Source of the DNA: Octopus vulgaris | Lineage: Eukaryota | Assembly: GCA_951406725.2 (NCBI GenBank) | Contig: OX597828.1 | Location: 38,502,001-38,566,000 of the forward strand | Reading direction: 5' to 3' | Length of the DNA: 64,000 bases | In this document: in pieces, positions 25,644 to 55,622 of the stretch | How positions within the stretch are numbered: position 1 is the first letter of the stretch | Layout: each line of letters begins with the position of its first letter | Notes under the pieces: model-generated | Told to the model about the DNA's origin: nothing | The model's database searches: none | The model's input: only the letters and a program-made list of their open reading frames with translations | Position numbers and translations under genes: made by a program

Positions 25644-26187
25644 GTTTTGTTGAATTTTCTGCTGCTTTAAATAAAGTATATATATATATATATATATATG
25701 GTAAAAGAGCCCGATAGAATAAGTAGCAGGCTTCAAATAAGAAACGTAATGGGGTCGATTCATTCGGCTTTTGTTCCTCCAAGACGGTACCCCAGCATGG
25801 CCGCCAGTTTATTGACTGATACAAGTAAAAAAAGAAAAAAGAAGTATTATTGTCACTTTCACACCATTCACTAAACAAATATTATTTTAATATCGGAAGT
25901 AATTTTATTCAGACATTTCGAAAACGCGAAAGTTTAATTCAACTTAACAGTTTGTTTATTGCGACGTCGGCGCATTCAGAGGCGATAACAATAACCAAAC
26001 AGTCGGGCTTCGGGGTGGCCTTCTTTAGTACGCTCTACATAGGCGCTGGCGTGGCTACTGCGTGGTAAGAGGCTTGCTTCTCAACCATATGGTCCTGGGT
26101 TCAGTAGGTGCCTTCTACTATAGCTTCGGGCCAACCAAAGCCCTTTGAGTAAATTTGGTAGACAGAAACTGAAAGAAACCCGTCGTA

Positions 26188-26460
26188 TCTCTTATTATAA
26201 AAGGCAGATTTTATCTGCCTCCCTTTGGGAGTTATACAAATCTACAATATAGGATTTCTTCAATTACAATTTACCTTGCATTTTTAAGAGTACAATGCAT
26301 CGCGTCATGCCAGGTCCAGTTTTTAAAATTTAAACTCCAGTTAAGCAAAATTTACAGAAAACTCACATTCTGGTGTGTGTGTCAAATGCTTTTCTTAGTC
26401 TGGTTTACAGCACACGCAAACGCACACACACAGTGGGCAACGAATAAAATGAAAGTAATT
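26188..26460 (+). mobile_element. Putative Helitron H2, 5' part, inserted in a SINE A head
   Basis: A|TC start. Matches 11835-12123. Confidence 0.55.
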
Positions 26461-26807
26461 GACTTACTGTAGTGAGTGATTCTTTCACTCTGCCTCCCAC
26501 TTCCACTTTCTACACAGACACGCAAATATATAAATAAAATTGTAAGCTAACGTGCGTGTGTGTGAGTGGGTGTGTGTGGGTGTGCGCGTGTGTGTGTGTG
26601 TGAGGGTGCGTGTGTGTGTGTGCGTGTGCGTGAGTGTGTGACAGGAAAGTTTTTTTACGACGAATATAACACCTATATCCAAGTAGCAGAAAGATAAGAC
26701 AGTAAGGTGTGATTTGAGGGAGATTTGGCTGCTATTTCTACCATGTCTAGCTGCCATGTAGGGGTCTCCCTCATAGGCTCATACATACATATATACATAG
26801 ATAAGAC

Positions 26808-27325
26808 GTGCCGGTGACACGTAAAAGTACCATCCGTTTGTGGCCGTTTGCCAGCTCTGTCTGGCCCCCGTGCCGGTGACACGTAAAAGCACCATCCGTT
26901 CGTGGCCGTTTGCCAGCTCTGTCTGGCCCCCGTGCCGGTGACACGTAAAAGCACCATCCGTTCGTGGCCGTTTGCCAGCCCTGTCTGGCCCCCATGTCGG
27001 TGACATGTAAAAGCACCATCCGTTCGTGTCCGTTGCCAGCCTCGCCTGGCCCCCGTGCCGGTGACACGTAAAAGCACCATCCGTTCGTGCCCGTTGCCAG
27101 CCTCGCCTGGCCCCCGTGCCGGTGACACGTAAAAGCACCATCCGTTTCGTGGCCGTTTGCCAGCTCTGTCTGGCCCCCGTGTTGGTGGCACGTAAAAGCA
27201 CCATCCGTTCGTGTCCGTTGCCAGCCTCGCCTGGCCCCGTGCCGGTGACACGTAAAAGCACCATCCGTTCGTGGCCGTTTGCCAGCTCTGTCTGGCACCT
27301 GTGCAGGTGGCACGTAAAAAGCACC
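26808..27325 (+). repeat. ~61-bp minisatellite (about 8.5 units) at the 5' side of a SINE C copy
   Basis: Unit gtgccggtgacacgtaaaagcaccatccgttcgtggccgtttgccagctctgtctggccccc runs directly into the SINE C body. Confidence 0.92.
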
Positions 27326-27492
27326 CACTACACTCACGGAGTGGTTGGCGTTAGGAAGGGCATCCAGCCGTAGAAACACTGCCAGATCTGACTGGGCCTG
27401 ATGAAGCCTTCCAGCTTCACAGACCCCAGTTGAACCGTCCAACCCATGCTAGCATGGAGAACGGACGCTAAATGATGATGATGATGATGATG

Positions 27493-27862
27493 AAGACAGT
27501 AAGGTGTGATTTGGGGGAAATTTGGCTGCTATTTCTACCAGGTCTAGCTGCCATGTAGGGGTCTCCCTCATAGGCTCATACATACATATATACATAGATA
27601 AGACAGTAAGGTGTGATTTGGGGGAAATTTGGCTGCTATTTCTACCAGGTCTAGCTGCCATGTAGGGGTCTCCCTCATAGGCTCATACATACATATATAC
27701 ATAGATAAGACAGTAAGGTGTGATTTGGGGGAAATTTGGCTGCTATTTCTACCAGGTCTAGCTACCATGTAGAGGTCCCCCTCATTGGCTCATATATATA
27801 TACATACATAAGACAGTAAGGTGTGATTTGAGGGAGATTTGGCTGCTGTTTCTACCAGGTCT
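27493..27862 (+). repeat. ~108-bp tandem repeat (about 3.5 units, one more at 26696-26802)
   Basis: Unit aagacagtaaggtgtgatttg...catacatatatacatagat, derived from family D. Confidence 0.9.
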
Positions 27863-28227
27863 GTTAGGCCTTCTCATGTAAACTCAAGCTTTCTCATGCC
27901 TTGAACATAAGACCAAAGCAGAGAATGTATTCTTTTATTCTTCTGCTTTTTCCAGCCATTGGTCTGTGGCCATGCTGGGGCAATGCCTTGAAGAATTGTG
28001 GTTTAATGAATCAACTCGTTTTATTTTTGTAAGCATTGTACTTATTCTATCTGTTTCCTTTGTCAAACCACTAGGTGACAGGGATGTAAACAAACCAACA
28101 TTCGTTGTCAAGCAGTGGTGGAGGACAATCACAAGCACAGACACGCACACACACACACATACATGCATACACATATACACACATACATACATACATACAT
28201 ATATATATATATGTGTGTATATATATA

Positions 28228-28550
28228 TTGCAGCGTGGAAGGTGTTTGTAAGCCATTTAAGAAACACACAAAAACCGTTACATTCACTTCAACATTTAAA
28301 TTTAATTTGCCAAAATATTTTCGTCGCTTTGAGACCGCGACCTGTTCACTGACAAAAATATCGTGCTAACAGGTCGCGGTCTCAAAGCGATGAAAATATT
28401 TTGACAAATTAAATTTAAATGTTGAAGTGAATCTAACGGTTTTTGTGTGTTTCTTAAATGGCTTATAAACACCTTCAACGCTGCAACTGTTTTCGTTCCA
28501 GCACACGATCTCAGATCAAGTCACTTGCTATGCAAGTACATCTCTGTAAC
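28228..28550. mobile_element. Palindromic TA-embedded element with 119-bp arms and a hammerhead-like motif
   Basis: Arms at 28228-28346 and 28368-28486. A single-arm copy lies at 40926-41105. Confidence 0.8.
28306..28356 (-). ncRNA. Minimal type I hammerhead-like motif, G3-C8 variant
   Basis: tttgtca-GTGAACA-g-gtcgc-ggtctcaaa-gcgac-GAAA-atat-TT-tggcaaa. Stem III is the palindrome AATATT. Confidence 0.55.
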
Positions 28551-28648
28551 TATATATATATTTATATATATATATATATGTATATTGGTAAAAACAGTAA
28601 GATAACAAAAGAAAGAAAGAGACCTCAATATTATGTAAATAGAGGAAA

Positions 28649-29043
28649 TCTTTATATATAAAAGTGAGGTTGTGTGTCTGTCTCCTACGATTTAGATTCC
28701 TAACTACTCCCACATTTTGCGGTGCAGTTTAACCAAAACCGGGTATCTTATAGTCGTGATTCATATCGAGACCGTCTGGGTATTAGCGCGCGTCTACGAT
28801 GAGTCTACGATTTTAAAAAAAATTTACCATCAATTTTTCCCATTTTTAATCCATTTTTGACATATATAAGGGAAGTAACTCTCTAAAATTTATTATTAAA
28901 TCTCAGAACGTAAAAAGCTACAGTAACATCCCTCCCCCTTTGTGGTTAGCCATATTGAGATGGCTATTATACTTTACATCTCTAAAAATGCTTATATAAT
29001 TATTTCCCTTACAAACCCGAGCAACGCCGGGCGATACTGCTAG
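28649..29043 (+). mobile_element. Complete non-autonomous Helitron H1
   Basis: A|TC start at 28649, subterminal hairpin cccgagcaacgccggg, CTAG|T end at 29043, no TSD. Confidence 0.88.
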
Positions 29044-29308
29044 TATATATATATATACGAGAACATAAACACACCAGCATCGGATGTTAGGTGGGGGGAC
29101 AACACACACACACACATATATTTATATACATATATACGACGGGCTTCTTTCAGTTTCCGTCTACCAAATCCATTCACAAGGTTTTGGTCGGCCCGAAGCT
29201 ATAGTAGAAGATACTTGCCCAAGGTGCCACGCAGTGGGACTGAACCCAGAGCCATGTGATTGGTAAGCAAGCTACTTACCACATACCCACTCCTGCGCCT
29301 GTGCCCAC

Positions 29309-29355
<47 letters not shown>

Positions 29356-29385
29356 TTGAGTTGTGGGGTATCGCACGAGTGGGAT

Positions 29386-29806
29386 TATATATGAAAAAAG
29401 GTTTGAAAATGCAATTTAAACGATGTTTATTTACTTAACCGGTTTCACTCTTTGGTAAAAGATTGTCAAAAGTAACATTGAATATTATGGGTTCAAAAAA
29501 AGTTGTTTACATAATTGTCACATTGAATATTATGAATTCAAAAATAATATATTTGTTTTATTCTTTTCTGCCAATTTTTCCAAATATTCTCATCACACTA
29601 TTGAACTTTTTTATACTATATTTATACATGTAATGTGACAATTATGTATAAAAAAACATTTTTGAATTCATAATATTCAATGTGATAATTATGTAAAAAA
29701 ACTTTTTTGAACCCATAATATTCAATGTTACTTTTGACAATCTTTTACCAAAGAGTGAAACCGGTTAAGTAAATAAACATCGTTTAAATTGCATTTTCAA
29801 ACCTTT

Positions 29807-29815
<9 letters not shown>
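29386..29815. mobile_element. Palindromic TA-embedded element with a hammerhead-like motif in each arm
   Basis: Near-perfect arms at ~29386-29540 and 29660-29815. Confidence 0.8.
29728..29772 (+). ncRNA. Minimal type I hammerhead-like motif, U3-A8 variant (mirror copy 29431-29475, minus)
   Basis: ttactt-TTGACAA-tcttt-tacc-aaaga-gt-GAAA-ccgg-TT-aagtaa. Stem III is the palindrome ACCGGT. Confidence 0.55.
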
Positions 29816-29877
<62 letters not shown>

Positions 29878-40879: not shown

Positions 40880-40926
<47 letters not shown>

Positions 40927-41003
40927 TGCAGCGTGGAAGGTGTTTGTAAGCCATTTAAGAAACACACAAAAGCCGTTCGATTCACTTCAACATTTAAGTT
41001 TAA

Positions 41004-41053
41004 TTTGTCAAAATATTTTCATCGCTAAAATCCGCGACCTGTTCACTGACAAA
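41004..41053 (-). ncRNA. Second copy of the G3-C8 hammerhead-like motif
   Basis: tttgtca-GTGAACA-g-gtcgc-ggatttta-gcgat-GAAA-atat-TT-tgacaaa. Stems are kept while loop 2 differs from the copy at 28306. Confidence 0.55.
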
Positions 41054-41103
41054 AATCCGTGCTGCATCTCAGATCAAATCACTTGCTATGCGAGTACACC
41101 TCC

Positions 41104-41138
<35 letters not shown>

Positions 41139-54747: not shown

Positions 54748-55622
54748 ATATAACTATTTCTCTGAAAGCTTCCAGTTGATAAAATATTGCTGATCTTTAA
54801 CATCAATGAAACATTTTCTCTGGATTCATCTCAAGAAACCCAAATTTTGGTACCAATTTCGGTAACAGGAAATGCATTCTGGGATATTGTCTTCTTTTAA
54901 TAAGAACGTTCCGGCTGCCATTCATTTAAAAATTCTAATATAAAACTTCGACCACCCTATCTTCTAATATAAGATAATAAATTTCATCGATGCAAATGTA
55001 TATATTCATTTGTAGCACCCATTACTTTGAATAGTGGTGACAATTAGAGTATTTTTTTTATTTGGAAAGCAATTTTGGAGACGGAAATCTGTTTACGTCT
55101 ATCAACTAAAACTAGTTTTTATCCAGCTGTTTTACAATGTACGGAATAATTTCCGGATCTTTTCTGTTTGATAGACGGAATTTTCTAGTTAACTAAAAAA
55201 TTTGAAAAAGATCTTAATTTCCTATGTAGAAATTTTCATAGTCGTCAGAAAAAATATATATAGTTACGTCAATGCTGTCTGATTGTTACACACTCCCAAG
55301 CAGTTTTGTAAATAAAATAAAAGATCACAGTGCCAGTTAATGCTATAACAAACATATGCTCCGTGGAATATTTCCTGTTAAAATATCTGTTTTGTATCAA
55401 AATGTATGATTGCCTCTATGTGTGTGTGTGTATGCGCGCGTGTATGTGAATGTGTTTATGTTCATATTCTATACGTGGGCGGGTGGCTGTATGAACGGAT
55501 GTATGAGCATGCGTATGTATGGGTGGATGTATGTATGTGTGGATAATTCATTGTATAAAGTAATATGTATTACATTTTAAACAAATTGATGTCACTACTT
55601 CCCTCTCTCACTGTTTGTCTGC

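Follow-up and report, generated by a model that had tools for sequence, protein, structure and literature searches.

Hammerhead motifs in the window

The window, that is, the whole stretch of DNA analyzed here, comprises 64,000 nucleotides of the Octopus vulgaris genome (contig OX597828.1, positions 38,502,001 to 38,566,000). Five hammerhead motifs were detected in these 64 kb with a descriptor that leaves core positions 3, 7, and 8 free. Three of these had been named in the first-pass annotation, and their cores lie where it placed them: GTGAACA on the minus strand at 28343-28349 and 41040-41046, and TTGACAA on the plus strand at 29734-29740. The other two are a mirror copy of the U3-A8 motif at 29469 (minus), which that annotation missed, and a canonical C3-G8 motif at 55248 (minus), represented by a single copy in the window, with a minimal stem III and a 4-bp stem I. 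The named motifs, the mirror copy and the elements that carry them are as follows (PLE, Penelope-like element):

26186..29058, plus strand: Helitron-like composite sitting between an A and a T; its 5' TC lies at 26188, and its hairpin plus CTAG end at 29043
28228..28365, minus strand: left arm of an inverted pair; both arms are 5'-truncated pseudo-LTRs belonging to the G3-C8 PLE family, which is linked to an RT/GIY-YIG ORF
28306..28356, minus strand: G3-C8 minimal type I hammerhead motif, with stems I and II given by the MFE fold; stem I 28356-28350/28312-28306, core 28349-28343, unpaired G 28342, stem II 28341-28337/28327-28323, G12-A15.1 28322-28319, palindromic stem III; predicted cut between 28313 and 28312
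28368..28549, plus strand: right arm of the inverted pair at 28.3 kb, truncated within the core, without G3-G5
29351..29817, no strand assigned: truncated 3' ends of a young, putatively Neptune-type PLE, arranged as an inverted pair; arms 29386-29545 and 29658-29817
29431..29475, minus strand: mirror U3-A8 motif, in the left arm of the U3-A8 insertion
29728..29772, plus strand: U3-A8 minimal type I hammerhead motif, a descriptor match; stem I 29728-29733/29767-29772, core 29734-29740, stem II 29741-29756 with U.U at its base, G12-A15.1 29757-29760, palindrome ACCGGU; predicted cut between 29766 and 29767
40922..41106, minus strand: short pseudo-LTR copy with the second G3-C8 motif; inverted tail at 41066-41106
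41004..41053, minus strand: second G3-C8 motif, of the subfamily with an 8-nt loop 2; C11.1 changed to U at 41021

In the G3-C8 copies, stem I consists of 7 bp, one unpaired G lies between A9 and 10.1, stem II has 5 bp and is closed by G10.1-C11.1, stem III is palindromic (AAUAUU), and position 17 is U. The U3-A8 motif has a stem I of 6 bp, a stem II of 5 pairs above the U.U, and the palindrome ACCGGU as stem III. Stems I and II can pair in both families, as expected of a type I three-way junction, and U4 G5 A6, A9, G12 A13 A14, A15.1-U16.1, and H17 are all present in both; the literal C3 and G8 are absent, replaced with G3-C8 or U3-A8, so that 3-8 is Watson-Crick in the family majorities. G10.1-C11.1, a usual although not universal feature, is present in the G family and absent in the U family. 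Accordingly, the first-pass statement that each core lies in the correct structural frame holds for all three motifs as far as the type I frame is concerned, but the U3-A8 motif is less regular, with a stem II that starts with U.U and lacks G10.1-C11.1. The MFE fold of the U family pairs the core instead of forming the hammerhead, and an unconstrained cofold of the three motifs, by a method that ignores tertiary contacts, gave no hammerhead dimer. No Rfam hammerhead was found among the best 150 of the 211 window matches. As the first-pass annotation anticipated, searches for a strict CUGANGA core would miss the G3-C8 and U3-A8 motifs.

The right arm of the inverted pair at 28.3 kb contains the ORF start codon (28458) and a tail of ~60 nt, and the U3-A8 insertion has a one-sided tail of ~35 nt at 29351-29385. 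The 8-nt loop 2 subfamily, to which the motif at 41004..41053 belongs, is the one found in young ORF-bearing copies. The inverted pair at 28.3 kb is a passenger within the Helitron-like composite, the ends of which match what we take to be the Helitron hallmarks. Ten loci, two of them being one and the same place, carry this composite (~2.9 kb) with 93-99% identity. It is non-autonomous, and the PLE inverted pair has been captured in it along with SINE-like pieces and a 107-bp tandem; position 28648 marks another Helitron-like 5' end, and a ~60-bp tandem array with a SINE-like tail (26808-27488) interrupts the composite in the window's copy only.

The G3-C8 family

A search of the 2.8-Gb genome with a pattern in which positions 3 and 8 were left free yielded 7,054 matches, compared to 0 for the reversed control, and a search with an anchor downstream of the motif yielded 7,561 matches. 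From the latter listing, 96 distinct copies were fetched, of which 69 span the motif. The majorities of both families carry paired residues at 3-8: G3-C8 was found in 95 of the 100 matches listed for the pattern with both positions free, and U3-A8 in all 56 inspected copies that retain the core. Among the 69 G-family copies, which were selected by the downstream anchor, G3 is present in 66 and C8 in 63. In four public read runs, including two with good coverage of the core, alternatives to G3 and C8 all stay below 3% of depth. The common variants among the 69 copies map to loop 2, the flanks, and one wobble-tolerant site in a stem; across the subfamilies, the core and stems are fixed while loop 2 changes.

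The ORF of the element was reached by tracing outward those copies that extend farther upstream. As determined by script, 25 of the 30 top G-family loci have the motif ~1.2 kb behind the endonuclease, and locus L274, which the script oriented wrongly, shows this arrangement too. Locus L320 is a motif-ORF-motif tandem, and locus L318 contains a 1,025-aa open frame with a GIY-YIG domain (Pfam); the ORF starts ~55 nt beyond the predicted cut. The motif is present in both pseudo-LTRs flanking an RT/GIY-YIG ORF in the tandems of both families (L320 and L228/L229). The hallmarks of PLEs are thus in place, namely, an RT followed by a C-terminal GIY-YIG endonuclease, inverted 5'-truncated copies, and a one-sided tail. 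Pfam identified GIY-YIG in the G protein and RVT_1 in the U protein, and the other domain of each was read from motifs. Both proteins contain the CX2-5CxxC linker, and they align in patches only, at 21-30%. Judging from their motifs, the U family may belong to Neptune and the G family to Nematis. No C3-G8 sister with the stems of the G family was found, only 2 scattered copies, which leaves the G3-C8 switch without an assigned position in a phylogeny. One G-family copy is abutted by a 182-aa open frame (L051:1571-2116) that, by its motifs, presumably resembles a dCMP deaminase.

The U3-A8 family

The downstream anchor of the U3-A8 family gave 730 genome matches, with 0 for the control. The family is young: 36 of the 41 copies listed are identical over 76 bases. 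Full units form 5.83-kb tandems that consist of the motif, ORF1, the RT-endonuclease, and a microsatellite-rich 3' UTR, with the motif ~120 nt before the start codon. U3-A8 was found in 29 of the 30 young-subfamily loci, the remaining one being truncated. In the sister subfamilies (768 matches), it is present in all 27 core-bearing loci, the other 3 of the 30 being truncated; G5 is lost in 3 of these 27 copies. Position 17 in the sister subfamilies is A in 85, C in 14, and G in 1 of the 100 matches listed. In the C17 subfamily, a U.G of stem II is changed to U-A, which supports the stem II register used here.

The ORF1 of this element (L228/L229, L102), ~447 aa long, overlaps the RT-endonuclease frame, which suggests a frameshift; it had no Pfam match above the cutoff. 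The PLE tandem is adjoined by a frame with one stop (L228:1571-5623) that we take, by its motifs, to be a gypsy-like gag-pol.

Variation among copies and the position of their 5' ends

The first-pass annotation proposed that covariation between positions 3 and 8 be sought by aligning all genomic copies. No such covariation was detected. After two unrelated sequences were removed from 29 genome matches changed at both positions, 27 G-family double mutants remained, and 9 of these are Watson-Crick, compared to 8.93 expected. Watson-Crick double mutants thus occur at the expected level, indicating that the inserted copies decay neutrally.

The G-U pairs that were offered as a sign of selection on ribozyme structure, with stems I and II maintained in the two G3-C8 copies while loop 2 differs, do exist, one in stem I at 28310 and the other at the base of stem II at 41021, and loop 2 is 9 nt in one copy and 8 nt in the other. 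They do not carry the argument, however. At the stem I site, the Helitron-like composite supplies 7 of the 12 G-bearing copies among the 69, and ~80% of the read depth is the Watson-Crick A; the change at 41021 is C-to-T at a CpG, present in 3 of the 69 copies and at 2-3% of depth. We therefore rejected the G-U pairs as proof of selection: one is largely a single change spread within the composite, and the other is a CpG-type change at 2-4%.

A truncation peak at the predicted cut was not detected in either family. Among the 96 G-family copies, there is no 5'-end peak at this site, with only 1 copy starting within 2 bases of it, and there is none in the U family, where 3 of the 13 copies lacking the stretch immediately before the anchor end near the cut. 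The lack of a 5'-end peak suggests that the copies come from uncut RNA, and inserted copies in both families span the predicted cut intact. In the G family, 39 of the 96 copies start near a common site located ~16 nt before stem I (L320:200-230). This boundary follows a branch-point-like, pyrimidine-rich stretch and is similar to a splice acceptor or else to a start site. No cap-derived G was seen there (C 8, G 7, T 4).

That the inserted copies span the cut intact is compatible with a fold retained for a job other than cutting, such as binding of the element's protein or control of translation or splicing near the ORF start, in which case the 3-8 pair would matter for shape only. The location of the motif, ~55 nt before the start codon in the G family and ~120 nt before it in the U family, fits such a role as well. 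According to the NUH rule, catalysis requires a non-G N17. G12, A13, and A14 are retained in the different subfamilies along with a non-G N17, as catalysis would require, and this speaks against a fold that serves shape only. The anole PLE has been studied in the laboratory, and the available text of that report can be read both ways: catalytic mutants had no effect on insertion in vitro, and no PLE RNA reads began or ended at the cut, but the motif does cleave once the protein is added (PMC11167929). Taken together, we regard a purely non-cutting role as unlikely and favor self-cleavage as the activity for which the fold is maintained.

Other hammerhead families in the genome

Loose patterns did not exceed the background genome-wide (904 matches compared to 914 reversed controls, and 472 compared to 640), although they led to further families. 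A tighter pattern with positions 3 and 8 free gave 136 matches compared to 11 controls, and 90 of the 136 were fetched and sorted by their flanks into families X, Y, and Z; six of the 90 belong to the U family, and 33 fall in no family and have mixed pairs. The loose patterns, with no excess over reversed controls, are what would be expected if the motifs were chance look-alikes arising in AT-rich inverted repeats. The tight patterns, with 7,054 matches against 0 and 136 against 11, show the opposite; the motifs sit where PLE hammerheads are expected, and they include an unpaired base between 9 and 10.1 and a palindromic stem III, even though these features are absent from the published descriptor. 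Position and family conservation thus largely refute chance resemblance, the probability of which we consider negligible.

Family X has A3-U8 in 22 of 27 copies and family Y in 8 of 12, whereas family Z has U3-A8 in 9 of 12. Pairing was compared to that of slid controls. In family X, stem II pairing is 0.72 compared to at most 0.44 in the controls, and stem I is only 2 bp long, as in D. virilis Penelope. Stem I pairing is 0.76 compared to at most 0.67 in family Y, and 0.70 compared to at most 0.38 in family Z; the stem II pairing of Y and Z is not clearly above the slid controls. Family Y has the same U.U/C-G base of stem II as the U family, and in Y and Z, one locus each has upstream of it a piece of endonuclease related to that of the U family (40% and 52%, respectively). 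In family X, no such piece in the right orientation and no linked RT were found. Families X (L418, L440, L453) and Y (L424, L432, L488) are both old repeats, each having an A3-U8 core and ACCGGU as stem III; in family X, the core follows a pyrimidine tract and an AG resembling a splice acceptor.

Two related tandem arrays of ~360 bp differ at the 3-8 pair, with C3-G8 in one and U3-A8 in the other, and the changes in their stems keep the pairing. These arrays (L348-L354, L360-L361; L375, L380, L392, L396) are retrozyme-like and contain type I motifs with GUC cut triplets. Two more families have C3-G8.

Altogether, nine families were tabulated, and about seven matches, the core of which may be a junction artefact, were left out. 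All nine are Watson-Crick at 3-8 and cover all four types, the two old ones being A3-U8. Shuffling position 8 over the nine families gives p of about 3e-4, a value that overstates the case because the families were hand-picked and are related, some of the patterns excluded certain bases at 3 or 8, and the roughly seven matches just mentioned were left out. The first-pass claim of selection on ribozyme structure is therefore plausible at the level of families, where all nine are paired and the arrays differ with pairing kept, and fails in regard to the G-U evidence. The contrast between families is better evidence for selection than the G-U pairs.

These same data bear on the prospect that the motifs are dead or drifting hammerhead relics, with a master element that gained two complementary core changes by luck and a family that spread anyway. 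One fixed family amounts to one event, and the odds of the second change being complementary are about 1 in 3; 3-8 covariation is absent within a family; and Naiad PLEs, as far as the available text of their description goes, reach high copy number without canonical hammerheads (PMC8557442). The luck of a single event does not account well, however, for nine tabulated families that are all Watson-Crick and include the four types, nor for a G-family core and stems that stay fixed across subfamilies with a variable loop 2. We therefore consider relics quite improbable and retain the reading in which the pair is maintained by selection.

Relationship to known hammerheads

Minimal type I hammerheads in the pseudo-LTRs of metazoan PLEs have been described previously (Cervera and de la Pena 2014, PMC4209133). 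In the portions of that paper available, the published motifs match those in the window in being type I, with a short palindromic stem III, a common U17, and close inverted pairs; the G family additionally shares with them the unpaired base between 9 and 10.1 and G10.1-C11.1, whereas the U family differs in the U.U at the base of stem II. The same source includes U3-A8 in Schistosoma Cercyon PLEs (~1,300 matches), and neither G3-C8 nor A3-U8 appears in any of the 56 representatives in its Fig. S3, which were obtained with a descriptor that fixed the core. A natural U3-A8 was described as the first case of covariation at 3-8 to be found in nature (Perreault et al. 2011, PMC3088659); the accessible text of this report names U3-A8 only, the same compensatory pair as in the U family.

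The literature that we found on G3-C8, or C3G with G8C, in the parts available, covers engineered variants only. In particular, an engineered C3G/G8C partly rescues the hammerhead of the Anolis Poseidon PLE (Frangieh et al. 2024, PMC11167929). From the available text, the Anolis system and the G family share a G3-C8 pair next to the ORF start, an optional tail, and an uncut RNA template; the Anolis pair, however, is lab-made, partly active, and in need of protein, whereas here G3-C8 is the natural state of a family, known by sequence. The ~360-bp arrays (L348, L380) fit the layout of non-LTR retrozymes as given in the accessible part of their description (Cervera and de la Pena 2020, PMC7229834), unlike the motifs in the window, which belong to autonomous PLEs. 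No natural G3-C8 or A3-U8 was found in the literature, although Lunse et al. 2017, Przybilski and Hammann 2007, Arkhipova et al. 2017, or figures may already show them. U3-A8 is thus already known (2011, 2014). G3-C8 is more of a novelty, and what adds most is to have the four-way series within one genome.

Interpretation and implications

We propose, with a probability of roughly 70%, that the motifs in the window are minimal type I folds from the pseudo-LTRs of two protein-coding PLE families and that the swapped 3-8 pair is likely kept by selection for a weak self-cleavage, probably assisted by dimerization or by protein. The sequences themselves show the fold, its position in tandem RT/GIY-YIG elements between the 3' UTR and the start of the ORF, the fixation of the swap in either family, and the pairing of 3-8 in the nine families; selection and cleavage are the proposed part. 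Counting against this reading are the lack of 3-8 covariation among copies, of a C3-G8 sister to the G family, and of a truncation peak at the predicted cut; in the U family, the missing G10.1-C11.1, the MFE fold, and the occasional loss of G5; the cofolds that gave no dimer; the hand-picked set of families with 33 matches unassigned; and, in family X, the 2-bp stem I and the missing RT. Position 8 serves catalysis through its 2'-OH, according to the available portion of PMC8495972, and because it acts in this way, any base at position 8 would be expected to work provided that position 3 pairs with it. Selection for a paired 3-8 would then act on the master elements and not on the inserted copies. 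In a tandem transcript, the two motifs may form the palindromic stem III with each other, and reverse transcription would use the uncut RNA. A more far-reaching version, in which retroelement families of one genome naturally use all four Watson-Crick 3-8 pairs, each of them functional and fixed repeatedly, G3-C8, although weak in engineered ribozymes, works well by virtue of its own sequence context or the protein of the element, and a large class of PLE ribozymes is invisible to CUGANGA searches, is conceivable, albeit on the doubtful side.

The chemistry of the hammerhead is unchanged by these variants. They add G3-C8 and A3-U8 to U3-A8 as natural cases of covariation at 3-8 and provide a natural series for asking how much the identity of the 3-8 pair matters. 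In practical terms, descriptors of PLE ribozymes should leave positions 3 and 8 free but paired. The findings also bear on the question of the role of hammerheads in PLEs, where young ORF-bearing elements keep the pair and yet apparently insert from uncut RNA.
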